Source: a virus
Direction: 5' to 3' (one strand)
Virus record (IMG/VR): IMGVR_UViG_3300043410_001007
Location: 39,930 to 103,929 of that record
DNA length: 64,000 nt
This document shows positions 1 to 44,604 of the stretch, piece after piece. The notes beneath the pieces were generated by a model that saw nothing but the letters and a program-made list of their open reading frames with translations, was not told the DNA's origin and did no database searches. The position numbers and the translations under genes are program-made. How positions within the stretch are numbered: position 1 is the first letter of the stretch; every line of letters begins with the position of its first letter.

Positions 1-1
1 T

Positions 2-3000: not shown

Positions 3001-6000
3001 GGATTACCAAGGCAGTGGTTATGTAGTCAGTATGGACGCTTACACTGCTGGTGTAGTATTCGACCGTCAAAGCAACACAACACAGACCAAGTACTACTAC
3101 TGGGTCAAGAACTATGGCGATATTCCACACGGTAAGACCTTAGCACCGACTACTATCGCTAGTTATGTATTAGACCCACTAAACAGCGGCATTCAATTCC
3201 TAGGCGCACTAAGCACAAACTCAATCGCACTATTCAATGCTAGAGAAAGTATCACTGAGAACACTAGTGCTCTACACGTAGGCTACAGTGAAAGTGATAA
3301 TGATGACGTTGGTCACCAAGACTGGTTACTCATACAAACTAATAACAAAGACAGCTTCTTGCCTGGCGTACCACTATCAATCGCTGATGCTCCAAGTGGG
3401 TTGTATCTAAAGTATCTAACCAGCTTCATGGGTCACGAAATTGATACAGAAACTCAACTAGTCAGAAAAGCCCTAACTGTGCCTGATGAAAACTTGAGTA
3501 TTCTAACAAGATATGGTGTATCATTCCGCCCACGTCAAACAATGTTCTTGGATCGTGAACTTGCTCTAAAGAATTACATTGATTATGCTAATCAAGTATT
3601 AGCTAGTGAACCTATCACAGAAACACGCGGCACATTCTTACTAAACAAGAGTGGCAGTGATTATGATACTGCTGACTTCTGGACAGTAACTGACTGGTGG
3701 GCTACCGGTTATTCTAGTAGCACAAAGCCATCACTAGAAGTTGATACTTACAATACTCTGTTGACTATCGGCAGTGTTGATCCTGTAAACGCTGATAGTA
3801 CCGGTATTGTCACAACACTAAGCGACGGTTTAGTAGCACGTGTAAAGAAGAACGGTCAAGGCCTGTATGAAACTTATCGATACACCTCTAGCGCTGGTTG
3901 GTCACGTATCAACTTAGAGAACGGTACTATCGCAATCAAAGATACAATCTACACACAAACGTCACCGATTCCATCGCAAGAAATCTATTGGATTATTCGT
4001 TGGCTAACTGAGCAGGTGTTCGTAGATGACTTATCAATCGAGAACAACAACTCATTGATTATGATGTTCAACTTTATTCAAAGTGATAGTCCACAGGGAC
4101 AAAACTATCTACCTTGGTTGAACAAGACAAGTCTAGTAGATATTCAACATACCATTCGACAACTACTACCGTACAAGAAGTTCCAGATTCAATCTAGTAC
4201 TCTAATCAACGGCTACATCAATGAAGTCAAACCATTCCACGTTTATGTAAAAGAGTTCTCATACAAGTACACTGCTACAGAGACATTCGAAGGCGACATC
4301 ACTGATTTCGACTTGCCAGCTAAATTCCGCTCTAGTAGTGCGACTTATGTTACGCCACGCCTAATACAGAAACAGTCAGAATCTCTTGGCGAATACACAT
4401 CTACTGATGGTATCTGGAGTGAGAGTGAATACGCAAACTGGTTCAAGTATCATGGTCTATCATACACTAACGATGGCGTTGGTGTAGAGGAATCAACTGT
4501 TGTTCCGGTTACACAAGTAATAGTAGATATTACAAGTAGCGCGGCTAGTATCTACGTAGAATCTGTTGCGGGTCTACCAGTAAGCGGTACAGTAAAAATC
4601 AATGGTGAAGAAATCTGGTACGAATCAGTAAATAGATCAACCAACTCAATCACTGGTCTAGTAAGAACAACTGGTAGTACTCACGCAAGTGGTTCAATAG
4701 TATCTCTCATTACTAAACCGGTAATGGTAATGGAAACAGGACGAGGCTATCTAGCTGCACCAATAGTTACTGCTTGGTATGATACAACTGACTTCCCGTA
4801 CGGTCCAACAGTTACTGCTACGTTTATGACTACAATGAAGAACGGCGGTCTAACTGTAGTTGATGTAGTAGAAGAAGGTCGTGGATATCCAACTACACCA
4901 GAACTACGTGTTAGTATGAGTAGCATCGTTAGTACATTTACTAGCGGTCAAGTAGATACACAAGTCAATCAGTTCAGCGTCGGTGGCCACCAGTTTGTAA
5001 ACGGTGACAGTGTTGTGTTCGTAACTGACTCGACAGACAGCAATCTAGCACTACGCAACTATGGCAACTACTATGTAGGCGCACTAGACGGCGAATCATT
5101 TGCGCTGTATGAAACTTATCGTGAGGCTATGGCTAGCTTTACAACTACTGAACCCATCGTTCGTGGCCGTGCCGCCGGTGATAACTATCACTTCTATCTA
5201 TCTAGTCCATATGATTATTCTACGCCAATGTTTGTAACAGGCGACTTAGTAAAATTACGCACAAACGTAGCGGGCGGAACTATTACTGACCCTTCATACA
5301 ATGATGCGTTCGAATATTACTATGCTCACGTAGATGAAAGCATCGATACAACCGGCGCTACACCTCACTATGCTCTGTATGATTATGTAACATTCCATAC
5401 ATCTCACAGTGATGCTATGAGTGGCGCTCACCCTGTCGAATTTGCGCCAGTGGGCGACCCTAATGCTGTAAGAAGTAATGAGTTCTGTATCGCAAGTCGT
5501 ACACAACGTGTTGATGATGGCAGAGTCACTATCGGTGCTAAGATTGATGGTACAGTTGGTATCGCGGCGAGATTACAAGCGTATCACGGTAATCGTCAAA
5601 CTCGTGGCATCAGAACCGCCATGAAGTTCGATAGAATTACATACAAGACATCAGTATTCAACTGGGAAAGTGGCGTCAATAGATTCCAAGAAATGGGCTG
5701 GGATGTAACAACCTGGAGCAAGGGCACTGCATACTCTAAGGGCGACCTAGTAGTGTACAACGGCCAACTTTATCGTGCTTCACGTGATACAATCAAACGT
5801 TGGGAAGTATCTAGTGCTAGTCCTAATGAAACTATCTCTCTATGGACACCTGGTACTAAGTACGCTGTTGATAAAAAAGTTCTGTACTCTACTATTATCT
5901 ACAAGTGTACAGAAGCAACTACAGATAAACCTACCGACGGTGACTTAGAAGTCTTTAGTCTAGCAAACTTCACTGAAGTCGCTAGTGATGATCCGCTCAT

Positions 6001-9000
6001 TACTGCGGCCGATCGTATTGTTGGTTTCTACAGACCTACTAGCGACATGCCAGGTAGTACCTATGCTGACCTAAGTCAACTAATGACTGGCACAACTTAT
6101 CCGTATCAAACGATTATTGATCCTGAGTTCACCTGGGGCGAGACATACGCATTCTTACCTCGTAACGTAGATACAGAAGAGAACACAGTAACTCTAAACA
6201 ATATCAAGCCACTACTAGCGAGTTACCAAGAAGTTGTCTATGGTACGTACACAACAACAGCAAACTCTATCACTCAGTATCACATGGCATCTCAGTTCAC
6301 GCCAGCAGTTACAGAAACTAACTTAGTTGGCAATTCACTGAGCGTAAGTGGCACACAGAACTTACACAAGGGCATGCCTATCCGATTTATCGGTGACATG
6401 ATCCAAGTTTACACTAACACAATCGTAAACGGCACAATCGTTGAGAGTGTTGCTAACGCATTCTACAAAGATACAACATACTTTATCGCCAATGTCGATG
6501 CTAGTAATAGTAGTATTCAAATTAGTTACAATCAGCAACTATCACAACTATCATCAATATCGACTACTGCGTCACGTGTTTACGCTAACGGCATGATTAC
6601 CCTAGATACAGCAATTGGTAACTACACAGACGCTACCATCAAGTTCTCTGGTAGTTCATTCGGTAACGTATCTGCTAACTTCTATTACATTGATAGTATC
6701 GATGGTACTGGTAAGAACGTAACTCTACGTACTGATGTATTCAGTAGTGGCGGGCAATTCGTTCCTCCTGTTAGTGCTAATATCGGTGCTAACGGTATCA
6801 GTGGTAATATGAAGGTCACTATTGACCCATACTTACCGCAGAAGAATGCAAGTGGTTACACCACTTTAGTTCTTGGACATCATGTTGGTATGATTGGTGT
6901 TGCTAATGCTAACGCTAATATTACTGTTACTGTTGATTCCACTGATGGACTGTATCTAAATGCTCCAGTAAAGTTCGGCGGCAATAGTATTGGTAACATC
7001 AGTAATAGCAGTGTTTACTTCATTAGTAATGTTGACGTTGCTAATAGCGCTATCAACATCGTTACTATTATGGGTGATACGACAGCGGTACCTAACGTAG
7101 CAAACGCTACTGGTACAATGACCGTTCGTACTGGCTTCCCGATTACAACAGTTACTGGTATCTCTAGTGGTAACTACTATGTTGCTAATACTACAACACA
7201 TATTGTAGGTTCAACTGGCAACATCACAGTAGGCACACTTGGTGCCAATGCTAAAGTTCAGTTTGCTAGTGGTAGTGTTTCTGGTGCTAATGTAAACAAG
7301 ACTACATCATACTACATTACTAGCGCTAATACAACTACTAATCATATTACTATTACTGATAAGTTAGTGGGCGGCACTACCATCACACCATCAACTAGTA
7401 CTCTTAGTAACAGTACTGGTCCACTCTATCTAGTATCAGACTACTACACCCAACCAGTTGAATCCAGTTACATCACTGGTGACTTGTTGAAGATGTACTA
7501 CAAAGACCCAGCAGATGAAACTATCGGTTTCTACTTTACAAACAGAGAAGCGAATAACGTAATCTCCTTGTATGCTTCGTCTGATGACGCGGAAGCAAAG
7601 ACTAATAGTATTGCTATCCACGACGGAGCATATGGCTACCTGGTCAAGCCACAAACAGTTGTATCGGCCGTTGGTCCACTAAAGTACATGATAGGCGACA
7701 TCGTGCCAATGACCTTCGAATTGTCTAGTCCAACTCTAGGCTTTGGTCTAACACCTAACAAGACATATTGGGCTCGCTTCATCTCTGTAACAACAGTTCG
7801 TCTGTATCGCACACGTACTGACGCACAGAACGAGTACAATCACCTACCACTACTAAAACAAATCGGTGGACAGATGGTCATCGGCTCACCAATTATCGTT
7901 GATGTAGTACAAGCAGATGGTAGTACTAAGATAGAAACAGTAGGTTACAATGAGTACGACAGTATCATCGTTAGCGACAATAACGTAACTCCTGACTACA
8001 ATGTAGCAGGCAAAGAGTTCACATGGGGCTTCGGTCCAGAAGAACTAATGGCGGGTGTAGTTAGTGATGGTGTGAACATCACTGTAACTACTCGTGCTGG
8101 TAGTACCTGGGACCCACTAGCAACAATCAACGGCACAGTAAACGCACGTGCCATCAGCGACAAGTTCGGTCATACTGGCTTCAACATGGTCCGCTTTGAT
8201 GCTTCTGCTAACGGCACTAAAGTAGACTGGTACTTAGATGCCGGCGACTTAGATAGTAATGGTCACGCAAAAATCAAATCTAGTGGTTTTGTTGGCGCAA
8301 CTACATTCGTTGAGAGTACATTCACTAACCCAGTAACAACACCATCTGGTGTGAAATTCGCATCAGCAGTGTACTTTGGTGATCGTGTGAAGAACCCCGT
8401 TACAGTTGAAGTTTATGCTAAAACAACTACTTATGGTCAAGTAAAACTAGTTGAGGGTACAGATTACATCCTAGACATGGCTAATAAAGTCATTCATAGT
8501 GTATCAAATACATACGTATCGATATCACTAGAGTTAGTGGTGTATGAGTTCGGTAACAGTAGTCACTTACTACGTAGCACAAGTGACATTTATGGCTTAC
8601 AAACTGTCGGCGATCATAGTGAGATGATGCTAGATGTTCCGTTTGCGCTAGTTGATCTTCCTACTATTGAAAACTACTGGCTGGGCGCATCAGTATTCGT
8701 CAATGGCGTAAAGTTAGAGTACTATGATGGTGTTCGTCCGCTATTCAATTACAATGCTCCAATGTTTAGTGTGATTCCACAGCGCCCATTCGATCCAAAG
8801 AATGACCCATACAACCCAGCCAAGATTGTATTCAATACGCTGTACACTTCCTCAGATTTTGCGTCATTCGTGTTAACCACTAACGTAATCGGCTACTATC
8901 GTGTAGAGAATGCTAGTGATACATACAAGGCCCCAATCACTGATGAAACTGCTTACTCCCGTGGCAAGATTGGTGTTTATGTAAACGGCGTACTCACCAC

Positions 9001-12000
9001 ACAAGATAGTGATTACAAGGTATCCATGATTACAAAAGGCAGTAAATCGGCGCTAGTAACAATCACATTTACTAGTGGTGTAGTAGCGGTGGGCGACAAC
9101 GTAAAGATTACTTACGAGAACGGTGGCGCTAGTGCTCCTATGATGGAAATGTTAGGCACACCAACGCCAACTACCGGTGCTGTACAGTATGATCTAACTG
9201 GCTTCCTGGGCGATAATAACTATGCGCCGTTCAGTGACTTACGTGTCCTATTCGATAACGCGGCATCTACTCAACCCAACACATTTGTTACACGTTGTGG
9301 TGTTGATTTAGCAGACGGTATGTCTGTGGTAGTTGTCGGTGACGATACTAACAAAATCATTCCTGGTTTCCCATCATCACATGCCGCAGACATTGTGACT
9401 AAGACATATTATCTACGTGATGTAGTCTATCACAGCGACAACTTATGGCAAGATACATTCGGTACTTACACATTCAGATTAGCAACTATCCCAGATGGTC
9501 AGCCAATCGTATTGAGTAGTGGTACAGATGGTACGGGTCAACCGCGCCACCTAACATTTGTAGTCAACAACGATAACTTGATTGTTGAGATTGACGGCAC
9601 ACGTATCAATGGTATCGCTCCTAATACTCTCAAGTACGGCGGTATTGCTACCCCAATCAACAACACAGTAACACTAAGTTACCCAGCACCAGTCTACAGT
9701 CGTGCTACATTCTCATCAAGTTATTTGATTGTGAACATCAACGGCGTGCCTTACTCTGCCGCAAATAATTTCGATAATATCGATCCTGTCTCTGGTGCTA
9801 GTAGACACATTCAGTGGTACACTAACTACGATGCTAATAATAACCTGATGGCTGGCTCTGATGCGACATTCAATGTTGATGATACACTAGCAGACACTGG
9901 AGCATTCTTCGACGCTGGTGACCCATTCGATAATCAAAGCATTATTGACATTGTATTTGCTTACGACCTCACAGGTAGTTCTGGTCTAATATCTACTGAT
10001 ATTATTACTGTTGAATACAACATAGTTGGTAACGCATGGGTATCAGGACAAACATACGAAGTGGGCGATATCGTTACTTACAATGGTGTAATCTTCCGTT
10101 GCTACAGTGATGTTACTAGTGCTACTAATCCAGTAACAGATTACTCTCACTGGTCGACTATTTCTATGTCACCACCTCCGGTGTATGTAGTAGAAGTAAA
10201 TCAAGATACTGCTGGAACTACCGGCGTGAACGAAACTTCTATCGGTGGCACTCTAACGGTTTATGCGCCATGGTTAGATAACACTCACAAAGTATCAGTG
10301 ACATCATTTGGTAGAACTACTCAACAGTATCTCAAGACACAAATCTTGAGTGACATCACTGTCACGCAGGTAACTAACGTTATTGAAATCACAGGTCAAC
10401 CAACAGTTGTCTACACTGGACCAACACTATCACTACCTGGCGCGGCCCATGGCATAAACATCGGCGACTTAGTAATGATCAATGGTACAGCAGTCAAAGA
10501 TTTAGATGGCGGCAACTATTACGCTAAACCAATCGATCTATCAGGAACGCTAGGCTCAACCTACACAGAAGAATACACATTCCAGTTGTTCTCTGATAGT
10601 GGTCTTGTTACACCGATTGATTTAGCAAACCCAGGCGCATTCCAGCCGATAACTACTGGTAAAGAAAGTTATGTACAGTTGTTACAAACTGCGACCAATA
10701 CTGCTTCCATAGCAGTCAACCCAGCGGTCATCAATCAGTCTCAATTCAATTTAGTTGATAAGCAACGCTTATTCGTTTCGTTCACTAAGGACAGTACAGT
10801 CAAAGGTTCAACAGGCCGCTATTACGTACAAACTAGTAAGTTCGATATTGCTACATTAGACTATGTAGATGAAGAGGGAACATCACAAACAGTGTACACT
10901 CTCATCTTGTTACAACCAGTAGTGCCTGGCAATCTGATTACTATCACGAGTATGGTACCAACAGCGTCTCCAGGCGAGAACAGATTACGTATGAATGCTC
11001 AATGGGATACTATCTCTAGTTCAGCAGTAGTGCCGTTCTTGTTCCAGCAAGACCCAGCAAATCAATTGTATTACACTAGTGTGTATCGTGAGCCTGAGGT
11101 TAGTAGAACGCATATTACTGCGGTTAATAGCAGTGATAGTATCACAGTTGCTAACCCATACGCTCTTGTACGTATCTACAACTACACTCGCAATATTAAT
11201 GAAATCGGTGTTCTAAAAACTGGTGAGCACTACGTACTAATCGAAGGCATTACTACTGACGAAATTGCTCAAATCAATATCACTGATAGTACTGGTGTGA
11301 AGATTGAAGAATTCTACTGGGTAAACTCTGGTAACTCATCGAGTGCTCGTATTGTATTCACATTCAACCCTAACTCAAAACTATCGATTGTAGTAGCAGT
11401 AGGCAATAACTTACTAATCAAGGGTGAACAATTACAATATCGTGCTGTAGAACTAGATGTAAACAAGACTAACTATGGTCAAATAACTGGTATTCGTCAT
11501 GCTAGAAATACAACGATTGCCGCTGACCTACAACCATATGATATCGTACAGAGTATCAAAGAAGAAGACCTGATGGCTTCTAGTTTGTACAATAAAACTT
11601 GGTACAGTAATACAGTTACCGCTTTAGTTGATACTAGTGGCGGCGATGTATCTGGTACGTACACACTACAGGACAGTACACTAGAAACATCACTAGTAAA
11701 AGTAGGTGACACGCTCAAGTTCAGCAGTACAAGTAATGATTTCTCTGGTATTGCTTATGTCTACACTGGTCTACAAGCAATCAAGTCGATTGTTAGTGAT
11801 AATGGTACCTATGTAAACTTTGCGATTACTGCGTATGGTGACACCGGATGTGTTATTACAGACCGCTATTACTATGATACTGGTACCAGTACATGGCTGT
11901 ATGATCGCCCATCTACTGGATCTCAGCCAGCTAAGTTTGGTGAGACTATGGTGGTGAGTGGCAATGCTACTGATGGTTACTACATGTCAGTTCGTGTAGA

Positions 12001-12679
12001 TCAGCCAGGAATGGCAGTTGGCCAGACAGTTGTGTGTAGCGCAATCGCTTACGCTATTCGTGAGGGTACTACCATATCCAATATTGAAGAGGCAACACCT
12101 AGTAAACCATCCAATGCTAAGATTATTACCATGTACAACAAGACTGGCTGGCCTCTACTCAAGGATATCCCTCGAGGAACAGCAATCCAATACGGTACTA
12201 CAATGCCAGTACTAGCGCCTAATGCTAAGTTCGCTAAGCCTGGGGAGAAGATCCAGTTCAGAAGATACAACAAAGCGAATGATGACTGGTCTACTAAAAT
12301 CAAATATTACGTAGCATCGGTTGGATCGTATTTGGACGTCTTTACAGTGGTAGAAAGCAAGGTCAACCCCGATAATCCACAACAATGGACCATCAAGATT
12401 GCTGAGCCAGTTACTATTCCTAGTGACGCCCGCGCAGAAATCGCAATCAGCGAATTCACAGTCACAGACATCGTAGATAACGGCGATACTACATACGCAG
12501 TGACAGTAGAAACTTACACTGATTGTGTTGATGGCTCAGGAGCAACCGCGGCAGCAACGCCGCTAATTACCGGAGGCTCAGTAACATACGCAACTGCTAC
12601 ATACAAGGTGATGGACAAGCCGCTACAACTTGATAATAGTAGCATTGCTGGTGGATTCTTGAATTACACGGCAAAATAA
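2..12679 (+). CDS. Giant virion structural protein (baseplate wedge/receptor-binding type), 5'-truncated by the window edge
   Basis: The frame of ORF 107..12679 is open from position 2 (VGQPAEKTSF...). It has FG-GAP/propeller-like motifs (LIVGAPEE, VFTGAPYE, LIVSAPY), CBM5/12-like motifs (WSKGTAYSKGDLVVYNGQLY, WVSGQTYEVGDIVTYNG) and Thr/Ser/Asn-rich beta composition, and lies directly upstream of baseplate/fibre genes. Confidence 0.8.
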   Translation, partial: VGQPAEKTSFLATVSGGTNTGTGTVTQEYTTIDTKVDLTDPRLQDDLSAVTLFDGFLPNDFAISQDNQWLYVSNKNTNEVKVFINEVGKFKPVSKYKAENSFTNGAITAGWGTTIDTPRDGSKLIVGAPEETVDGSDNAGATYIYARLTENFLQSDRALKIVPYQTYSIEDMGDVDATSLEGWFDLGAGVQFRARITKDDGYIDNTAWKSGTIMTVGDATYGIKDTTGASSIIRIGSYLSGYDPAHSVGDTQDRIVAGTTVVGQFDSYETDTLTAFCDGANGSSEITFAARSTPAAVSVGQIVCVTTRNSTTPFAINHVSKADYEDSTKNSEVSKIQPDTYVAYIKNNVDYHTVSLFDGTSHSTGSLTKGSDGKIYKAKNTTTMDPVTDTTFVNWSQVKVTVGLTRKLTGQLASANNEVSFRAAGRTGRYIVSEAHNFSGAQVNHIAGSVVTAISKDVPFVARGYGSIVKRINGVLSSVDKTGTVSLRKDFIINDVVPNNKVIVYIDNKLVPLYTIGYRNGRNYRSYNYKITVNTLLNQTKVSFTKTPPIGSVVVIDFGKLILQQRTQSAAPRVGAQYGHSVATNNWGAEVFTGAPYEISDINSKHNIEGAVYRWTNVGQRYNNIVGDLKNLVPNNAGTYDVDANIYIDGFLVNIKFTGEASKASVAERIAKIIDTTEPTNVIASSNGTTFTIYNGIPGTTNDQVDITGDLDKIGITPYIKTQTIVDTINYSTTAAFGYTIAVNKELNSTRDALIVSAPYTNVLAETTFDFIDDLRDDDTIYDNGGTTFVDRFTSIGGVYEYDYLASDTETPTNPGIYTFGQYVNHVPSETAALRANTPRYGQSLNFNDGTITVGSPLWYRDGTGRVSQFTTTTYESCWYVDKAPLPKVDVNKLVTVAIYDTNDGTALSSLDYIDPAQGKHLAAVNTNLDFIGATDPASYTTGIIWNKKQVGKTWMDTTNFRLMNYNQPDLQYNARYFGQTFPGSTADIYTWIESDVEPMDYQGSGYVVSMDAYTAGVVFDRQSNTTQTKYYYWVKNYGDIPHGKTLAPTTIASYVLDPLNSGIQFLGALSTNSIALFNARESITENTSALHVGYSESDNDDVGHQDWLLIQTNNKDSFLPGVPLSIADAPSGLYLKYLTSFMGHEIDTETQLVRKALTVPDENLSILTRYGVSFRPRQTMFLDRELALKNYIDYANQVLASEPITETRGTFLLNKSGSDYDTADFWTVTDWWATGYSSSTKPSLEVDTYNTLLTIGSVDPVNADSTGIVTTLSDGLVARVKKNGQGLYETYRYTSSAGWSRINLENGTIAIKDTIYTQTSPIPSQEIYWIIRWLTEQVFVDDLSIENNNSLIMMFNFIQSDSPQGQNYLPWLNKTSLVDIQHTIRQLLPYKKFQIQSSTLINGYINEVKPFHVYVKEFSYKYTATETFEGDITDFDLPAKFRSSSATYVTPRLIQKQSESLGEYTSTDGIWSESEYANWFKYHGLSYTNDGVGVEESTVVPVTQVIVDITSSAASIYVESVAGLPVSGTVKINGEEIWYESVNRSTNSITGLVRTTGSTHASGSIVSLITKPVMVMETGRGYLAAPIVTAWYDTTDFPYGPTVTATFMTTMKNGGLTVVDVVEEGRGYPTTPELRVSMSSIVSTFTSGQVDTQVNQFSVGGHQFVNGDSVVFVTDSTDSNLALRNYGNYYVGALDGESFALYETYREAMASFTTTEPIVRGRAAGDNYHFYLSSPYDYSTPMFVTGDLVKLRTNVAGGTITDPSYNDAFEYYYAHVDESIDTTGATPHYALYDYVTFHTSHSDAMSGAHPVEFAPVGDPNAVRSNEFCIASRTQRVDDGRVTIGAKIDGTVGIAARLQAYHGNRQTRGIRTAMKFDRITYKTSVFNWESGVNRFQEMGWDVTTWSKGTAYSKGDLVVYNGQLYRASRDTIKRWEVSSASPNETISLWTPGTKYAVDKKVLYSTIIYKCTEATTDKPTDGDLEVFSLANFTEVASDDPLITAADRIVGFYRPTSDMPGSTYADLSQLMTGTTYPYQTIIDPEFTWGETYAFLPRNVDTEENTVTLNNIKPLLASYQEVVYGTYTTTANSITQYHMASQFTPAVTETNLVGNSLSVSGTQNLHKGMPIRFIGDMIQVYTNTIVNGTIVESVANAFYKDTTYFIANVDASNSSIQISYNQQLSQLSSISTTASRVYANGMITLDTAIGNYTDATIKFSGSSFGNVSANFYYIDSIDGTGKNVTLRTDVFSSGGQFVPPVSANIGANGISGNMKVTIDPYLPQKNASGYTTLVLGHHVGMIGVANANANITVTVDSTDGLYLNAPVKFGGNSIGNISNSSVYFISNVDVANSAINIVTIMGDTTAVPNVANATGTMTVRTGFPITTVTGISSGNYYVANTTTHIVGSTGNITVGTLGANAKVQFASGSVSGANVNKTTSYYITSANTTTNHITITDKLVGGTTITPSTSTLSNSTGPLYLVSDYYTQPVESSYITGDLLKMYYKDPADETIGFYFTNREANNVISLYASSDDAEAKTNSIAIHDGAYGYLVKPQTVVSAVGPLKYMIGDIVPMTFELSSPTLGFGLTPNKTYWARFISVTTVRLYRTRTDAQNEYNHLPLLKQIGGQMVIGSPIIVDVVQADGSTKIETVGYNEYDSIIVSDNNVTPDYNVAGKEFTWGFGPEELMAGVVSDGVNITVTTRAGSTWDPLATINGTVNARAISDKFGHTGFNMVRFDASANGTKVDWYLDAGDLDSNGHAKIKSSGFVGATTFVESTFTNPVTTPSGVKFASAVYFGDRVKNPVTVEVYAKTTTYGQVKLVEGTDYILDMANKVIHSVSNTYVSISLELVVYEFGNSSHLLRSTSDIYGLQTVGDHSEMMLDVPFALVDLPTIENYWLGASVFVNGVKLEYYDGVRPLFNYNAPMFSVIPQRPFDPKNDPYNPAKIVFNTLYTSSDFASFVLTTNVIGYYRVENASDTYKAPITDETAYSRGKIGVYVNGVLTTQDSDYKVSMITKGSKSALVTITFTSGVVAVGDNVKITYENGGASAPMMEMLGTPTPTTGAVQYDLTGFLGDNNYAPFSDLRVLFDNAASTQPNTFVTRCGVDLADGMSVVVVGDDTNKIIPGFPSSHAADIVTKTYYLRDVVYHSDNLWQDTFGTYTFRLATIPDGQPIVLSSGTDGTGQPRHLTFVVNNDNLIVEIDGTRINGIAPNTLKYGGIATPINNTVTLSYPAPVYSRATFSSSYLIVNINGVPYSAANNFDNIDPVSGASRHIQWYTNYDANNNLMAGSDATFNVDDTLADTGAFFDAGDPFDNQSIIDIVFAYDLTGSSGLISTDIITVEYNIVGNAWVSGQTYEVGDIVTYNGVIFRCYSDVTSATNPVTDYSHWSTISMSPPPVYVVEVNQDTAGTTGVNETSIGGTLTVYAPWLDNTHKVSVTSFGRTTQQYLKTQILSDITVTQVTNVIEITGQPTVVYTGPTLSLPGAAHGINIGDLVMINGTAVKDLDGGNYYAKPIDLSGTLGSTYTEEYTFQLFSDSGLVTPIDLANPGAFQPITTGKESYVQLLQTATNTASIAVNPAVINQSQFNLVDKQRLFVSFTKDSTVKGSTGRYYVQTSKFDIATLDYVDEEGTSQTVYTLILLQPVVPGNLITITSMVPTASPGENRLRMNAQWDTISSSAVVPFLFQQDPANQLYYTSVYREPEVSRTHITAVNSSDSITVANPYALVRIYNYTRNINEIGVLKTGEHYVLIEGITTDEIAQINITDSTGVKIEEFYWVNSGNSSSARIVFTFNPNSKLSIVVAVGNNLLIKGEQLQYRAVELDVNKTNYGQITGIRHARNTTIAADLQPYDIVQSIKEEDLMASSLYNKTWYSNTVTALVDTSGGDVSGTYTLQDSTLETSLVKVGDTLKFSSTSNDFSGIAYVYTGLQAIKSIVSDNGTYVNFAITAYGDTGCVITDRYYYDTGTSTWLYDRPSTGSQPAKFGETMVVSGNATDGYYMSVRVDQPGMAVGQTVVCSAIAYAIREGTTISNIEEATPSKPSNAKIITMYNKTGWPLLKDIPRGTAIQYGTTMPVLAPNAKFAKPGEKIQFRRYNKANDDWSTKIKYYVASVGSYLDVFTVVESKVNPDNPQQWTIKIAEPVTIPSDARAEIAISEFTVTDIVDNGDTTYAVTVETYTDCVDGSGATAAATPLITGGSVTYATATYKVMDKPLQLDNSSIAGGFLNYTAK

Positions 12680-38246: not shown

Positions 38247-39214
38247 GGATACTAGTAACAGGCGGTCAAGGCCTAATCGGACACAACGTAGTTCATAGAC
38301 TGCTACAAGCGGGTCATCACGTTACTACACTAGACAATAGAACAAACTACGGTATCATACAACAAGATGAACTAGATTATCTATTGACTGAACGAGGTAA
38401 GTTAATTGAACGTGCTACTAATTTAGTGGGTGATATCTCTAACGCAAAGACAGTAGATGAGACAATCAGATCATTCTTGCCCGAGATCGTGGTTCACATG
38501 GCCTCGTTCCCTCGCCAGAAAGTAGTCAACAACAACCCTGCTCTAGGTAGCCGAGTAATGAGCGAGGGCCTAATCAACCTACTAGAGTCTGCCGCTCACT
38601 ATGATGTCCGGAAGTTCGTGTATATCTCTTCATCAATGGTGTATGGTGATTTTACTGACGATGTAAAGGAAGATTATGACTGCCGACCTCAAGGACAATA
38701 TGGAATACTCAAACTCGCAGGCGAATGGCTTGTCAAAGACTATACTCGCCGTTACGGCATTGCTCATACTATTATACGCCCCTCTGCTGTATATGGTCCA
38801 CTCGACGTGGAAGACCGTGTAATCTCTAAGTTCATGCTGACTGCTCTACGCGGCGGCACACTCAAGGTCAACGGTGCCGATGAGACACTTGACTTTACAT
38901 TCGTTAGTGACGCTGCCGACGGCATAGTAGCGGCCACTCTGTCGCCTAATACAGCTAATAAGACATACAACGTGACAAAATCTCACTCTTGGTCCCTACT
39001 TCGTGCTGCCGAACTGGCGGTTAAAATCGCCGGTCGTGGTACTATCGAATGTCGAGACCGAGACTTAGACTTCCCATCACGTGGTGCACTCAATATCGAT
39101 GCTGCCAGACAAGATTTCGGCTTCGATCCTCGAGTAGATGTCGAAGAAGGCTTCCAACGCTACCATGACTGGTTTACTCAGTCTACTTACTGGCAGTCTC
39201 GTATCAAAAGTTGA
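38243..39214 (+). CDS. NAD-dependent epimerase/dehydratase (extended SDR)
   Basis: TGGQGLIG, YISSSMVYG, YGILK (YxxxK), DFTFVSD. Confidence 0.92.
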   Translation: MRILVTGGQGLIGHNVVHRLLQAGHHVTTLDNRTNYGIIQQDELDYLLTERGKLIERATNLVGDISNAKTVDETIRSFLPEIVVHMASFPRQKVVNNNPALGSRVMSEGLINLLESAAHYDVRKFVYISSSMVYGDFTDDVKEDYDCRPQGQYGILKLAGEWLVKDYTRRYGIAHTIIRPSAVYGPLDVEDRVISKFMLTALRGGTLKVNGADETLDFTFVSDAADGIVAATLSPNTANKTYNVTKSHSWSLLRAAELAVKIAGRGTIECRDRDLDFPSRGALNIDAARQDFGFDPRVDVEEGFQRYHDWFTQSTYWQSRIKS

Positions 39215-39228
39215 TAAATAAGAGTATC

Positions 39229-39675
39229 ATGTGGATACTCAAATTCTTACCCGACTGGTTCCTTCATCTATCACTTATTGCTAGTGTTCTAGCAGTTCTG
39301 ATAGGCACCCTACTGGGCAATCTCTCATTCGTCAAACAATACACCACCATACTTAAAGTAGTTGGTGGTTTTGTACTTGTTCTAACGCTTTTCTTAGAAG
39401 GCGCACTACACGACAACAAAGTATGGGAAGCACGTGTCCTAGAAGTCGAAGCAAAACTAGCTAAGGCCGAAGCAGAAGCTGCCGCACAGAATACAAAACT
39501 CACTGACAAGGTAGCTACTAAGCAACAACAAGTCAAAGAGAAAGTGGTCATTGTAAAGCAATACATCGACCGCGAAGTCACTAAATACGACACAAAATTT
39601 ATGCCCGGTGGCATATGCGAAATCCCCAAGGAATTCATCAAAGCGCACAACGATGCCACGGAGCCAACTAAATGA
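39229..39675 (+). CDS. Inner-membrane spanin (Rz-like)
   Basis: N-terminal TM segments, long coiled coil, C-terminal Cys. Start reassigned to ATG 39229 after ATAAATA. Confidence 0.65.
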   Translation: MWILKFLPDWFLHLSLIASVLAVLIGTLLGNLSFVKQYTTILKVVGGFVLVLTLFLEGALHDNKVWEARVLEVEAKLAKAEAEAAAQNTKLTDKVATKQQQVKEKVVIVKQYIDREVTKYDTKFMPGGICEIPKEFIKAHNDATEPTK

Positions 39676-41648
39676 AAATAACAGATATTATCCTAGAAGC
39701 GGCCCCAGCCGCACCAACACAACAGCCGGCACAACCAGCTCAAGCTAATCCACAACAAGCGATGCTAGACAAACTAGGCGCAAGAGCAGGCGCCGCTGCG
39801 GGGTCAAACATTGATCAAGTCACTGACGCCTATCAACAAAAGCTACTAGATAGAATGGGTAAACGATTCGGTCTACCTCCTGGCTCATCTATGGAGCAAG
39901 TACAAGCTGCACAACAAGAATACTTAAATAAGAATGACCCACAGGCGGCAGCACAGTATCAACAACAAATGTCTAATATTGATGCTGGTAAAGAGGCGGG
40001 TCCAGCAGTAAATCTAACACAGCAACCAGCAGCCACACAACAGGCACCTCAGGCAGCACCACAAGCAAACCCAGACGAAGCTGGCGGCATGGCTGCAGCC
40101 AAGGCTGGCAAGTCACCAATTGCTATTATGTTAGCGCAACCAACTATTGCTGGTAACCAAGCATATCTTGATGTTATCGCACCTAGTGTTGGCCTAAAAC
40201 CAGGCGCAACAGCAGAACAAATTTTGGCAGCAGACACCCAAAGAAATAATCAGGCGGGTAATAAGTATGCCCAGAAACAAGCCGCGCCAGTAGCAGAAGG
40301 CAGAGCAACAGACAGTAAAGGTCGGACCCAACAAGAGTGGATCAAAGCAGTCATTAAAGCATACCCGGATGCTCGTATCGTACAAGCTAAAATGATTGAC
40401 GGACCATGTCACGCTATGTTATCAAACGGCAAGAAGCTATCATGGAACAAAGTGGTTGGCTTAGAAGAAGCACGTAAAGCAAATACAAAAAAAGCCCGCG
40501 CAGAGTTCAGTAAACGTACAAGCAAGCCTAAGTTAAGTGATAAAGAACAAGCTAAGAAGAAATCAGATAGTGATGAGGCATGGGAGCGTCTAATGGCTCA
40601 TATCGAAGCACAGAAGAAGGACAAAGACTTAGCAGAAGATAAAGACCCATGCTGGTTAGACTACAAGCAAGTAGGCATGAAAGAAAAGAACGGCAAGAAG
40701 GTACCTAACTGCGTACCTAAAGAAGGTATGGCGGAAGGCTCAGAGGAAGGTAGTTACTCTGATAAGTTTGTTCAAAGTCAGATTGATTACCATAGAAAAC
40801 ATGGATTGTCTGGCACAGCGGCTGATAGAGAGCGCATTAATGGTTCATTAAACTATTATCAGCATATTAAAAACAAACGCATCAAAGATGGTACATGGCA
40901 AGAGCAACGTGTGGCGGAAGGCTGGGACCCAGACACAACACGACTTGAGCAAGATGTTAGAGATGCGTTAGAGAATGGTGACGACTACACAGCAAAGCAA
41001 TATGCTAAGATGGCACCAACACCAGAAGCCAAGAAGTATCTACTAAACATTATCAAGCAAGCGATGTATATTGATGATTTAGGCGGCGAAACTGACTGGA
41101 AAGGCGTGACGGAAGCAGGTGAATGGACTAAACTTCCTAACGGCAACTGGAGAAACATGCACACTGGCGCACAACAATCAACTCCTCCTAAAACAAAGAA
41201 GCCTCGCAGAACAATGGGATTACACGCTAGTTTAGAACAACACGCTGATGACAAGATGAAAGAATTAGGTCATAAGTTCAGACCTGTAGCAGAAGATGAA
41301 GCGGGTACTAAAGGCTTTCGTGTAACATGGTCAGAAGCAGGTAGTGACAAACACACTAGTGGCTTGTTGTTAAAACCTGGTGCTATTGAACACGCTAAGA
41401 TGCTAAAAAAGAAACCTGGAACAAGCAATGTTAAAATTGTTCCTTATAGACAAGTAAGCGAGATGGACGGCAACGGCAGCGGTCGTGATGGTAGTAATCG
41501 TAAGCGCATCAGTAGCTACGGTACTAGAGACCGCGATATTTCAGGTCCTGATATTCACCTCGGCGCTAAGAATACAATGAAGCGTAAAGATATTGTCAAA
41601 CGTGCCGCTAGTACACTAAACAAAGCATTTAAGACGAGTAAAAAATGA
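39672..41648 (+). CDS. Modular putative internal head polyprotein
   Basis: N-terminal MKITDIILE; unrelated short segments separated by VAEG, LEEA, LAED, MAEG, VAEG, VTEA, VAED, VSEM. Confidence 0.55.
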   Translation: MKITDIILEAAPAAPTQQPAQPAQANPQQAMLDKLGARAGAAAGSNIDQVTDAYQQKLLDRMGKRFGLPPGSSMEQVQAAQQEYLNKNDPQAAAQYQQQMSNIDAGKEAGPAVNLTQQPAATQQAPQAAPQANPDEAGGMAAAKAGKSPIAIMLAQPTIAGNQAYLDVIAPSVGLKPGATAEQILAADTQRNNQAGNKYAQKQAAPVAEGRATDSKGRTQQEWIKAVIKAYPDARIVQAKMIDGPCHAMLSNGKKLSWNKVVGLEEARKANTKKARAEFSKRTSKPKLSDKEQAKKKSDSDEAWERLMAHIEAQKKDKDLAEDKDPCWLDYKQVGMKEKNGKKVPNCVPKEGMAEGSEEGSYSDKFVQSQIDYHRKHGLSGTAADRERINGSLNYYQHIKNKRIKDGTWQEQRVAEGWDPDTTRLEQDVRDALENGDDYTAKQYAKMAPTPEAKKYLLNIIKQAMYIDDLGGETDWKGVTEAGEWTKLPNGNWRNMHTGAQQSTPPKTKKPRRTMGLHASLEQHADDKMKELGHKFRPVAEDEAGTKGFRVTWSEAGSDKHTSGLLLKPGAIEHAKMLKKKPGTSNVKIVPYRQVSEMDGNGSGRDGSNRKRISSYGTRDRDISGPDIHLGAKNTMKRKDIVKRAASTLNKAFKTSKK

Positions 41649-41956
41649 CACCAGAACATAGCAAGCAAGTATTTAAATCAGTAATCGGCGCAGTGTTCGT
41701 GATTATGATAGTTGTATTCGTGCTCACTGGCTGTAGTACAGCAGTGCCAGTCACTGCTAAGTTCCCCGATGCGCCTGAGCGCCTCAAAGTAAAGTGTCCA
41801 CAACTACAAAAAGTAGATGAAAAAGCAAAACTAAGTGATGTAGCAAATACAGTCACACTAAACTACGGTACATACTACGACTGTGCTGTAAAGAACGATG
41901 CGTGGATTGAATGGTACGAAGTACAGAAGCGCATCTTCGAAGGAGCAGGTAAATGA
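41645..41956 (+). CDS. Outer-membrane spanin lipoprotein (Rz1-like)
   Basis: Hydrophobic stretch plus LTGC lipobox, Pro-rich region, two further Cys. Confidence 0.7.
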   Translation: MTPEHSKQVFKSVIGAVFVIMIVVFVLTGCSTAVPVTAKFPDAPERLKVKCPQLQKVDEKAKLSDVANTVTLNYGTYYDCAVKNDAWIEWYEVQKRIFEGAGK

Positions 41957-42753
41957 AAATCAGTGAAATCATAACAGAATCAATCAAAATATCTGAGTTC
42001 GAGGGAGATGCTACACAATTCAGCAACCCAACACAGACAACACCTACTACCGAGCGTCCACCTCGTAGAGGTTATTCGATAGAGTTAGTCGGTCGTCCAG
42101 GTAAAGATTGGATGGCTCAATACGCATGGGAAGCATTAGAAAAGGTGTTACCTAGAGATTACCCAGGTAATTCACAAGCCGCTGCTGCCGGCAATTCAAA
42201 TTTGCCACCCACTAATGCTATACGAAAAGTACTAGAAGTAGGTAGACACGGTTCCGCTGTAATTAAAACAGGTATCGCTAGTGAAGATATCGCAGAAACT
42301 ATCGTATCGAAATTATCGGCTAATAGATTACCAGCAAAATTTCTACGCATCACTAGTGAAGATTTAGACGAGAGCGAAAAGAGCCCAATGTTCAAAGACT
42401 CACAGAAAGCAGACCGCGTTCGTAGTCTAAAGAATCTTATTGCTATTGCTAAAGAACAAGGTCGTCAACTACGAGTGCAAGAACTTGAACTAGAGTTGAA
42501 AAAAGTACAAGGCCGACTAAACGAATTCGCCCCAGACAGTAATGATGACGGCAACGGCGAAGAGGACGCACTACTCAAGTACGCTAAAATGTGGTATCAA
42601 GGTGACTTGAAAACACAACAACAAGTCGAGAAAATCTTAGACCGTATGGGCTGGGAAATCGGCGAGTTAGAAAGTGAAGAAGGCGGCTGTTTTGTTATGC
42701 GGTCAGATGATGAAAACAGTTACATAGGATTCTCGGCAGAAGACCTACAATAA
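41953..42753 (+). CDS. Second modular putative internal head protein
   Basis: MKISEIITE start; ISE, LDE and LNE junctions. Confidence 0.55.
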   Translation: MKISEIITESIKISEFEGDATQFSNPTQTTPTTERPPRRGYSIELVGRPGKDWMAQYAWEALEKVLPRDYPGNSQAAAAGNSNLPPTNAIRKVLEVGRHGSAVIKTGIASEDIAETIVSKLSANRLPAKFLRITSEDLDESEKSPMFKDSQKADRVRSLKNLIAIAKEQGRQLRVQELELELKKVQGRLNEFAPDSNDDGNGEEDALLKYAKMWYQGDLKTQQQVEKILDRMGWEIGELESEEGGCFVMRSDDENSYIGFSAEDLQ

Positions 42754-42778: not shown

Positions 42779-43585
42779 TTATTTACAGAGTGCTCGTTTA
42801 GCGTTAGTAAGAGCACCGAAGTCTACCGGCCATTCTCCACCAGGCGGAATCTCACGAGCATTAGGCGGGAAAGCAAACTTCACACCAGCCGTCTGTTGAA
42901 TCTGAGCGATAGGCTTGCGGAACTTAGTCAAGTCGTTACCTAAGTTAGGATACGGAGCAACGTGTGGGAATTCCCAGCCAGCAACTTCGTTAGTAGCCTG
43001 ATTGATAACAATCTTGTAGTAGCCGTGTGGCACAACAACGCCGTTACCGATCTTTGGGTTATTCATAGTGTAGTAAGCACCAACATAGTAAGTGTATGGC
43101 TGACGAGTTTGTGCCGCCCAACCACGTACTGAAGTTTCTAACAACTTCCAGATGCCACGGTTCAAACTACCAGCCTGCGGGTACATGTTGGTCATTAGGA
43201 ATGACTCATACTCAACTTGCTGGTCGTATGATAGATCACCGTCAGGGATAGCATGGCCCTTGTCGAAGCCTGTACCTACATAATCTTGTGGTGTAGCGCC
43301 GGTGCCACCCAACGACTGGTCAGCAACGAAAGCATCGGTACGAGCGATACAGCCGATAGCGTTCTGTGGTAGGAGAGTACTGGCTACATAGCGTGGAATC
43401 TTAGCAGGGGCATCATAAGCGACTAAGTAGCCCTGACGACAGATAGGCTGGGCGCCAGCAGTCTGACCGAATCCCCATGGAGAGTGAACACGACATTGTT
43501 CGACCGGTAGTGGAGCACGTTGGACCCAGGAATGGGCACTCGACATAAATGCCGCGGATAATAATGTTATTAGTAGATGTTTCAT
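42779..43585 (-). CDS. DNA/RNA non-specific endonuclease (NucA/EndG family) with signal peptide
   Basis: FDKGH active site, SFLMTNMYPQ...LNRGIWKLLE, VPHGYYK. Start reassigned to MKHLLITLLSAAFMSSAHS. Confidence 0.88.
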   Translation of the reverse strand: MKHLLITLLSAAFMSSAHSWVQRAPLPVEQCRVHSPWGFGQTAGAQPICRQGYLVAYDAPAKIPRYVASTLLPQNAIGCIARTDAFVADQSLGGTGATPQDYVGTGFDKGHAIPDGDLSYDQQVEYESFLMTNMYPQAGSLNRGIWKLLETSVRGWAAQTRQPYTYYVGAYYTMNNPKIGNGVVVPHGYYKIVINQATNEVAGWEFPHVAPYPNLGNDLTKFRKPIAQIQQTAGVKFAFPPNAREIPPGGEWPVDFGALTNAKRALCK

Positions 43586-43589
43586 GTTA

Positions 43590-44084
43590 CTATTTATGTT
43601 TGGTTTTACAGTTATCTCCGTGATGCTGAGTGTAATTTCCCTTGCCTTTTCCAGATTTACCACAATGAGTACAGGTCCATTGTAATTTAGTTGGTGAATT
43701 TGGTCCGATAAAGTTATGTGTTCCTGATAGCAGTTGTTTATGTGCTTTATCTCTTTGCCACGACGAGTTTAGAAATTTATGAGTTCCATTGGACAATCTT
43801 GTCTTGTTTGCCATGGATGCGTTCTTGGATATTTCTTCTGGTGATAAATTCATTCTTATTGCCATGGCATGACATTCTGCCCAATCTCTCTGTTTGAAAT
43901 GTAAATCGTAGTGGTCTTTTATAGATAAGGCAACTAAGTTATCGACTGAATTATTCGTACAGTCACCATCAAGATGATGTATTTCGTAAGTTCTCCCATC
44001 GGCATCTGTAGGAATAGTTCCGTGGCGCATTTCGTAGATTCTGCGATAGACGGAGTTTGGTGATCTCTTCTTATAAATAGTCAT
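43590..44084 (-). mobile_element. Free-standing HNH homing endonuclease
   Basis: EIHHLDGDCTNNSVDNLVAL...HYDLH, GTHKF/GTHNF repeats, C-terminal CTHC...HHGDNC finger. AAGGAG SD before ATG 44084. Confidence 0.85.
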
Positions 44085-44211
44085 GCTGGTGCTCCTTAAT
44101 AGCATTAGAGTAGTTGGGAAGGTAGGATGTCCGCGAACTACACTTTTATTTATCAACTACATCATAAAATCTAGACTCGGAACATGATAAATACAAGATA
44201 TTGGTACAACT

Positions 44212-44604
44212 ATGAGAATCTCCGAAGTCAACGAATTACAGTCAAAAATCAAGCAAATCAAAGCGTTTGCTGATTGGGCTATTGCTGAACTCAAAATAAA
44301 AGGACAACCAGACATTGAGTACGGTACAGACATGTCACGTGTTCTCAAACAGCGCTCATTCGGCAGTACAAATAGTGCTGGTAAAATCTGGACACACTGC
44401 TCCAACCGTAACGCGGCCGACGCTATGCGAACACTATGCCATGAACTGGTACATTTCAAACAGTTCGAAGATGGTACCGCCACGGACAACATGGACGATG
44501 AGCAACGATTACAGGTCGAAGATGAAGCAAACGCTATCGCTGGTCGTATGATGAGAGCATACGGCAAAATAGATAAGACAATTTACGAAAGCAAAGGAAA
44601 ATAA
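44212..44604 (+). CDS. Small zincin-like metalloprotease domain protein
   Basis: RTLCHELVHFKQ (HExxH) with downstream EDEAN; N-terminal MRISEVNE. Confidence 0.65.
   Translation: MRISEVNELQSKIKQIKAFADWAIAELKIKGQPDIEYGTDMSRVLKQRSFGSTNSAGKIWTHCSNRNAADAMRTLCHELVHFKQFEDGTATDNMDDEQRLQVEDEANAIAGRMMRAYGKIDKTIYESKGK

Follow-up and report, generated by a model that had tools for sequence, protein, structure and literature searches.

The window analysed here is a stretch of 64,000 nucleotides, bases 39930-103929 of the 103.9-kb IMG/VR virus record IMGVR_UViG_3300043410_001007, and coordinates refer to this window unless stated otherwise. An open reading frame (ORF) on its plus strand, at 39672-41648, encodes a protein of 658 amino acids (aa) with the N-terminus MKITDIILE. 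The gene has a GGAG ribosome-binding site 10 nt upstream and overlaps each of its two neighbours by 4 nt. From the letters alone it had been proposed (the original prediction) that the product is a capsid-targeted chain of unrelated mini-domains punctuated by sites for a prohead protease. We found that this gene, below called the cargo gene after its proposed role, belongs to a family of mosaic phage proteins in which short modules are shuffled between proteins and are bordered by a joint that is conserved both as peptide and as DNA. The same genome carries a T4-type protease and head module, and most family members start with the same kind of leader, of 8-9 residues.

Hydrophobic-X-Glu sites follow the leader at every one of the eight positions that had been listed for them: VAE at 40290, LEE at 40461, LAE at 40629, MAE at 40728, VAE at 40911, VTE at 41106, VAE at 41286 and VSE at 41454. 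Their Glu residues (209, 266, 322, 355, 416, 481, 541 and 597) split the protein into a head piece of 200 aa (M1) and eight modules (M2 to M9) of 57, 56, 33, 61, 65, 60, 56 and 61 aa. The expectation that the segments would mostly measure 30-70 aa therefore stands for the eight modules (33-65 aa) but not for the first piece, with its 200 aa and two helical subdomains. Two extra M-K-E triplets, at E338 and E531, fall within conserved modules and do not mark junctions. Little weight can rest on the counts of sites by themselves. The loose pattern [LIVM]-x-E is present 11 times where shuffles predict 6.0 (p=0.025), and a stricter pattern, which was picked post hoc, nine times against 0.73. Stronger support, independent of these counts, comes from homology blocks that start or end at the site Glu and from the joint flanking them, which is conserved throughout the family.

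The leader (39672-39698, on the plus strand like all the modules) is nine residues long, ends in I-L-E and resembles a capsid targeting sequence (CTS). It is followed by M1 (39699-40298), a Gln/Ala-rich piece ending in APVAE|G at E209, which AlphaFold2 (AF2) models as two helical subdomains and a disordered spacer; elsewhere M1 and M2 usually come as a pair, in ~390-aa proteins with the N-terminus MKIREIVTE. M2 (40299-40469, pI 9.6) is a small alpha/beta unit ending in VGLEE|A at E266. It was found in more than 45 copies (57-80% identity), all with x-A/V-x-E before them and with varying sequence behind. The Lys-rich helical module M3 (40470-40637, pI 9.8) ends in KDLAE|D at E322 and has copies with differing neighbours, whereas M4 (40638-40736), a C-W...P-N-C-V-P unit ending in EGMAE|G at E355, stands N-terminally, internally or C-terminally in about 20 different proteins. 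M5 (40737-40919) ends in QRVAE|G at E416, and its 13 copies (69-95% identity) all have QGVAE before them and at their end. M6 (40920-41114) is an acidic helical module (pI 4.4) that ends in KGVTE|A at E481 and has more than 20 copies at 76-100% identity. Nine copies of M7 (41115-41294, pI 10.1, ending in RPVAE|D at E541) were found at 92-97% identity, and seven of M8 (41295-41462, pI 9.7, a small beta-rich unit ending in RQVSE|M at E597) at 79-95%, in both cases with unrelated flanks. The C-terminal basic unit M9 (41463-41645, pI 10.8) has eight copies at 59-85% identity and is internal elsewhere. Altogether seven of the eight small modules have a pI of 8.0-10.8 and one is acidic.

A search of Pfam with the 658-aa ORF gave only a noise-level match to a type III secretion system (T3SS) needle protein (E 0.17), and PHROGs returned just two families of unknown function, both covering M3-M4. 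No module showed a recognisable function or matched an enzyme or a known inhibitor in the Pfam, PHROG and fold searches, and the protein has neither a signal peptide nor a membrane segment.

The original prediction expected the segments, searched separately, to be found in different orders in other phage proteins, and this is what we saw. A word-indexed search gave 132 matches, each spanning 9-49% of the query. When 1.84 billion representatives were searched exhaustively, 1691 proteins matched at E<=1e-3 (156 at E<=1e-10), again each in part only; a full-length colinear relative is absent from both sets, and the order of the modules varies. Local alignments place query residues 198-306 at 686-801 and residues 477-542 at 80-145 of protein P0056, while in P0002 residues 10-331 come after residues 288-355. 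Searched one by one, the modules were each found again, at 60-98% identity, in dozens of metagenomic phage proteins, which are 360-1130 aa long and place unrelated sequence beside them; the joint precedes and ends nearly every copy. About 30% of the alignment end-points fall no more than 4 residues from the nine sites, an area that makes up 12% of the sequence; many alignments begin 5-6 residues ahead of the Glu because the joint itself is shared. The smallest arrangements are easily read: the 124-aa protein P0131 has exactly the same leader and first residues and then only M4 and M9, in P0219 and P0191 M3 stands directly after the leader Glu, and P0197 consists of the leader, M4 and M3, the last two in the opposite order to the 658-aa ORF.

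For counts of joints and segments we pooled 354 non-redundant proteins. At least one strict joint was present in 275 of these and at least three in 135, with a maximum of nine, and 247 of the 508 internal segments measure 50-80 aa (median 75 aa). We sorted the segments into 716 clusters, whose neighbours are nearly random: the 12 members of the M5 cluster have 10 different neighbours upstream and 11 downstream, and the 19 members of the M6 cluster have 17 and 15. In relatives, modules are also fused to ART-PolyVal plus a methyltransferase, to GP88 or to DUF6321, fusions of the kind seen in proteins for which delivery with the DNA is predicted (PMC5512222). For the genomic context of metagenomic homologues we relied on IMG/VR loci only; M6, for example, is present at six such loci, one of which lies on a genome of 338.5 kb that is 97% complete. 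Assembly chimeras were considered as a source of the shuffling and rejected, as they cannot make new module-to-neighbour adjacencies, which is the thing counted here. M3 and M4 occur also in isolated T4-like cyanophages and in the Methylophilales phage Melnitz, and a tblastn search of phages gave matches in these phages only, confined to M3-M4. Gene 18 of Melnitz-3 (MZ577098.1, 14914-16866) starts with MKKFSEIIE and combines a cytidylyltransferase-like motif, a C-W...P-N-C-V-P module and a DUF6321-like C-terminus; it could be a cultured test case for the leader.

As a peptide, the joint has the consensus (E/K)-Q-G-V-A-E|G or, in longer form, (K)-E-Q-G-V-A-E|G over 461 sites. It is also frozen as DNA (GGTGTGGCGGAA), with rare codons. 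In the cargo gene the DNA joint at 40725-40739, GGTATGGCGGAAGGC (GGT ATG GCG GAA GGC, read as G-M-A-E-G), matches the family consensus GGTGTGGCGGAAGGC; the joints at 40908-40922, CGTGTGGCGGAAGGC (CGT GTG GCG GAA GGC, R-V-A-E-G), and at 41103-41117, GGCGTGACGGAAGCA (GGC GTG ACG GAA GCA, G-V-T-E-A), lie on the same plus strand. The exact 18-mer CAAGGTGTGGCGGAAGGC was found in at least 120 IMG/VR stretches, often two to four times with a spacing of 150-530 nt. We counted codons in a further 174 GVAE joints that had not been chosen by the 18-mer word, and these use GGT in 94%, GTG in 81%, GCG in 77% and GAA in 88% of cases. Outside the joints of the same ORFs, GTG makes up 20% of the Val codons and GCG 7% of the Ala codons, and genome-wide the figures are 12% and 8%. 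The joint is retained or copied at the level of DNA and stays in frame throughout, which fits a recombination handle for the exchange of cassettes. A literature search turned up no paper about the GVAE joint or DUF6321.

The leader has the family consensus M-K-I-x-E-[IF]-[ILV]-[TI]-E, and in 71 of 120 homologues position 8 or 9 is a Glu preceded by a hydrophobic pair. Its pattern, acidic-hydrophobic-hydrophobic-x-Glu, is that of the T4 CTS MKTYQEFIAE. In T4 a 10-residue CTS suffices for loading into the head, and gp21 cuts after L/I-X-E (PMC9026906, PMC3012670); the leader and the joints fit this published rule (PMC9026906), in line with the analogy that had been drawn from the letters. The motif is rare, since only three ORFs of the 104-kb record (about 100 ORFs) carry it, at 39672, 41953 and 44212, all within 5 kb. 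In the 97%-complete relative it is found in about 12 of 455 ORFs: every ORF with two or more joints has it, and some ten others have the leader alone. In at least nine cases the same module stands directly after the leader Glu in one protein and directly after a joint Glu in another, and therefore both Glu positions are equivalent boundaries, as would be expected if one enzyme cuts both.

Structure models agree with the view, held also in the original prediction, that the protein is not one folding unit. For the whole protein, the Atlas model reached a pTM of 0.19 and a pLDDT of 0.53, and a single-sequence AF2 model a pLDDT of 52 and a pTM of 0.26. With a colinear alignment of 31 rows, AF2 modelled residues 10-266 at a pLDDT of 82 and a pTM of 0.38 as three confident subdomains, two helical and one a small alpha/beta unit; the pLDDT in M1 exceeds 90 at residues ~27-104 and 134-194, and the model is disordered at ~114-129 and at 204-210, the region of the E209 joint. 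When 120 mosaic relatives were aligned with MAFFT, most modules came out misaligned (8-20% column identity), and this alignment was not used for folding. The model of residues 10-266 had no fold match in PDB or BFVD at E<=0.001, and all neighbours of the Atlas model had a TM below 0.25. As far as models can tell, the 658-aa protein would be beads on a string.

The setting in which such a protein could be packaged, a T4-type head with a gp21-family protease, is encoded by the same record in the part that lies upstream of the window. The head module comprises a Gp23 capsid protein (PF07068, 4e-98), a gp21-family protease of the Peptidase_S77 type (PF03420, 3e-26; bases 8759-9406 of the record, minus strand), a gp20-type portal (Portal_T4, 5e-104) and a scaffold-like coiled-coil protein of 365 aa. 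The capsid protein shares 64-67% identity with its counterparts in Sinorhizobium phage Phosso, Vibrio phage 2.275.O, Pseudomonas phage PA5oct and ~350-kb Escherichia phages, for instance Turkey5, and the nearest capsid proteins come from cultured jumbo phages of 285-470 kb. The record is 29% complete by CheckV, which implies a genome of about 350 kb, and is a fragment of the genome of an uncultured T4-core jumbo phage of roughly that size. Sites of the protease type are found in presumed substrates of this genome: QLLAE|S (Glu43) in the capsid protein, KLVAE|G, QFIAE|S and SQLAE|S in the scaffold, and SPVAE|S in an acidic core-like protein.

Peptidase_S77 was found in seven of the 22 joint-bearing records tested (G000-G021), two of them 97-100% complete. 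This count includes the 338.5-kb, 97%-complete relative, whose genome was covered in full, and five of a set of 16 joint-bearing records, one of them 100% complete; most others of that set are fragments of 15-48%, which limits this association, and their sizes again imply genomes of about 350 kb. In the 97%-complete relative G001 (IMGVR_UViG_3300046786_000293) four large proteins follow one another on the minus strand at 301280-308295, two with leaders (MKLFDFFE and MKSLDFLNE) and two with related N-termini (MTNMRKLLE and MSDIRRLLE; M-x-x-x-R-K/R-L-L-E), and GVAE joints occur in two of the four. This block is probably a dedicated cargo locus. A scan of 250 kb of PA5oct gave two leader-bearing ORFs only. 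One of them, EST35_0150, is a 73-aa protein of the head module with the N-terminus MKINDIITE, and its annotation records detection in virions by ESI-MS/MS (electrospray ionisation tandem mass spectrometry).

Around the cargo gene lie two more leader-bearing genes on the plus strand; the original prediction had noted neither these nor the DNA-level conservation of the joint. The first (41953-42753) encodes a 266-aa protein that starts with MKISEIITE, has no internal joints of the family type and matched no family in Pfam or PHROGs. The second (44212-44604) encodes 130 aa with the related leader MRISEVNE and a HExxH zincin-like domain (Pfam Peptidase_M78/IrrE-N-like, E 8.7e-5, 22.8 bits versus a cut-off of 22); the protein is possibly a metallopeptidase that is packaged, and it recalls the MPTase domains found in polyvalent proteins. 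Between these two, on the minus strand at 42779-44156, lie a DNA/RNA non-specific endonuclease (PF01223, 1e-37) with an apparent signal peptide and an ORF similar to HNH-type homing endonucleases; a homing nuclease would be of interest in a putative hotspot of cassette exchange. The cargo gene itself is flanked by a spanin-like pair, a membrane-anchored coiled-coil protein (39211-39675) and a lipoprotein with the lipobox L-T-G-C (41645-41956). Their matches are weak (phrog_456 Rz-like spanin, 2.7e-5; LysC Rz1-like, 0.08), and it is unusual that an i-spanin/o-spanin-like pair is split by a 2-kb gene, with 4-nt overlaps among all three. The heptamer CTAAATA occurs at 39581-39587, 85 nt before the cargo gene, and 20-51 nt before several head, baseplate and tail genes; we gave it no weight as the core of a late promoter, because chance alone would produce a 7-mer about 13 times in this record. 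The tail and baseplate region includes one ORF of 6540 aa (G000:C1:32986-52608) that extends into the window at 1-12679.

Targeting, cleavage, retention and injection are inferred, as are the roles of the modules. The cargo gene would be expressed together with the lysis and late genes, and the MKITDIILE leader would dock the protein on the prohead core, in the manner of the T4 CTS. Once activated, Peptidase_S77 would remove the leader after I-L-E and cut also after the Glu of every hydrophobic-X-Glu joint, giving one piece of about 20 kDa and eight of 3.8-7.4 kDa. The released pieces would stay beside the packaged DNA and be carried into the host along with it. We regard leader-directed loading of the prohead, followed by S77 cutting at the joints into about ten small cargo proteins, as the most likely mechanism, with a probability slightly above even. 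By analogy with T4 Ip1-3, the modules are likely a mix of DNA-binding and anti-defence proteins. Through the fixed in-frame DNA word at the joint, recombination between phages or within a genome could add, drop and reorder modules with the frame left intact. Perhaps the joint is dual-purpose, a protease site as peptide and an 18-nt in-frame recombination handle as DNA, and together with the leader serves the combinatorial assembly, exchange and delivery of injected small proteins in an uncultured clade of phages of about 350 kb. This wider proposal is tentative, and we hold it with less than even confidence.

Several observations weigh against loading and cutting as set out here. The leader has nine residues, one fewer than the T4 CTS, and at this length the two could hardly be shown to be homologous. 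The P3 position of the joint is Val, whereas the T4 rule has L/I. Conservation of the joint at the DNA level is not explained by selection on the peptide alone, and GGNGTNGCNGARGG has no copy in four cultured relatives (Vibrio phage 2.275.O, Phosso, Turkey5 and PA5oct); the joints belong to an uncultured subclade. One joint-bearing record that is 99% complete (G010, IMGVR_UViG_3300032268_000986, 342865 bp) had no match to the Pfam Peptidase_S77 model or to the protease of this phage. The other leader-bearing protein of PA5oct, EST35_0271, was not detected in virions. Finally, most small cleavage fragments exit the T4 head (PMC9026906), and therefore retention of pieces of 4-7 kDa is not assured.

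The codon usage of the joint also bears on whether cutting takes place there at all. A protease site has no need of the frozen synonymous positions seen in the 174 joints (GTG and GCG above all), and polyvalent proteins such as the N4 virion RNA polymerase have been described as delivered intact (Iyer et al., PMC5512222). The protein might be packaged and lose its leader but stay uncut as flexible beads on a string, with the joints acting as hinges and above all as DNA recombination handles. We consider this unlikely, given that the joint ends in the exact residue pattern cut by enzymes of the gp21 family, is interchangeable with the leader's own cleavage position and has counterparts in two proteins of this phage, the scaffold and the capsid protein; a V-A-E|G that is exposed and disordered would also be hard to protect in a maturing prohead with active S77 protease. 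The fragments could, on the other hand, be released and have a purely structural role, the basic ones neutralising or organising the packaged DNA or aiding head-size determination, like the T4 internal peptides and the inner-body proteins of the phiKZ type, with no part in anti-defence. The high pI of seven of the eight small modules and the lack of any match to an enzyme or known inhibitor agree with this, as does the contact of T4 internal proteins with DNA phosphates through their lysines (PMC3012670). Its probability nevertheless seems low to us: diversifying pressure fits the 716 segment clusters with their near-random neighbours in 354 proteins better than generic charge balancing does, relatives carry ADP-ribosyltransferase and methyltransferase domains, and T4 Ip1-3 are specific inhibitors of GmrSD (PMC12373910).

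The position of the gene raises the further question of whether the product enters the virion. It lies outside the head module, between the spanin-like coiled-coil and lipoprotein genes that it overlaps by 4 nt, and one PA5oct leader protein was not detected in virions. It could thus be a late protein of the lysis region, cytoplasmic or envelope-associated, whose N-terminal motif is a translation-start or other signal and whose joints are processed, if at all, by a different protease such as the neighbouring HExxH protein. This seems quite improbable, since the protein lacks a signal peptide and a membrane segment, the T4 ip and alt genes lie likewise outside the head module, and the leader, a rare motif, is found together with joints and T4-type head genes in many records.

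Injected phage proteins act before phage gene expression and are prime tools of counter-defence. To our knowledge, only a handful have been characterised, T4 Ip1-3 among them. If loading and cutting take place as proposed, one phage clade would hold hundreds of distinct cargo modules of 50-80 residues with borders marked by the joint, a ready catalogue of candidate anti-defence or DNA-handling mini-proteins. A virus would then diversify its injected payload by in-frame cassette exchange, and the leader with its cleavable joints would be a natural design by which a single gene could load a capsid with several proteins. The dual-purpose joint, if real, would be the protein-level analogue of a gene-cassette array.

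Among known systems, the polyproteins of RNA viruses resemble the proposed one in concept only, with one frame, several products and a virus protease acting at short conserved sites. Lineage, protease and purpose are unrelated, and their products are a replication and structural set where here they would be virion cargo. The inner-body and ejection proteins of phiKZ, 201phi2-1 and SPN3US are nearer: these are jumbo phages in which a T4-related protease makes several cuts after Glu in abundant internal proteins, and proteins are ejected into the host (PMC10052503, PMC9026906). Their diverged gp21 homologues cut at (S/A/G)-X-E or A-X-E (PMC10052503, PMC9026906), and the type differs from ours in lineage and in P3, which is Ala there and Val, Leu or Met at our joints. 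The tblastn search of phages, with its matches in cyanophages and Melnitz only, gave no homology to these proteins. In these phages the cuts mainly destroy long propeptides and leave one mature fragment per protein, and neither shuffled cassettes nor a linker frozen as DNA has been reported for them.

The polyvalent proteins described by Iyer et al. 2017 (PMC5512222) likewise join many unrelated domains in one polypeptide of a mobile element, with a highly variable architecture, and are predicted to be delivered with the DNA (PMC5512222). Relatives of the 658-aa ORF carry an ART-PolyVal domain. The ORF itself differs in having only nine or ten autonomous mini-modules without a recognisable enzyme domain, and a Pfam search found none of the polyvalent signature domains (MPTase, ART, ArdC-N and others) in it. 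The paper on polyvalent proteins describes no capsid-targeting leader, fixed linker or processing by a prohead protease, and proposes instead release by an in-built zincin, the MPTase (PMC5512222).

Together with the polyvalent proteins, the closest known systems are the T4 internal proteins IPI, IPII, IPIII and Alt, which share with our system the T4-type core and a gp21-family protease (PMC3012670, PMC9026906, PMC12373910). The 658-aa ORF has no sequence homology to these four in the Pfam and PHROG searches, a feature that is weakly defining because the T4 internal proteins share only the leader; in the T-even phages generally, the leader is the sole feature that internal proteins have in common (PMC12373910). 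In both cases a short leader ending in hydrophobic-X-Glu is the only link among unrelated, mostly small basic proteins, and the T4 ip and alt genes, like the cargo gene, look non-essential, are hypervariable and lie outside the head module. T4 has one cargo protein and one leader per gene, whereas in our system a single leader is followed by as many as about ten cargo units, joined by internal sites of the cleavage type. Unlike in the T4 internal proteins, the joint between these units is a conserved 18-nt DNA word, and the modules are shuffled between proteins and between phages.

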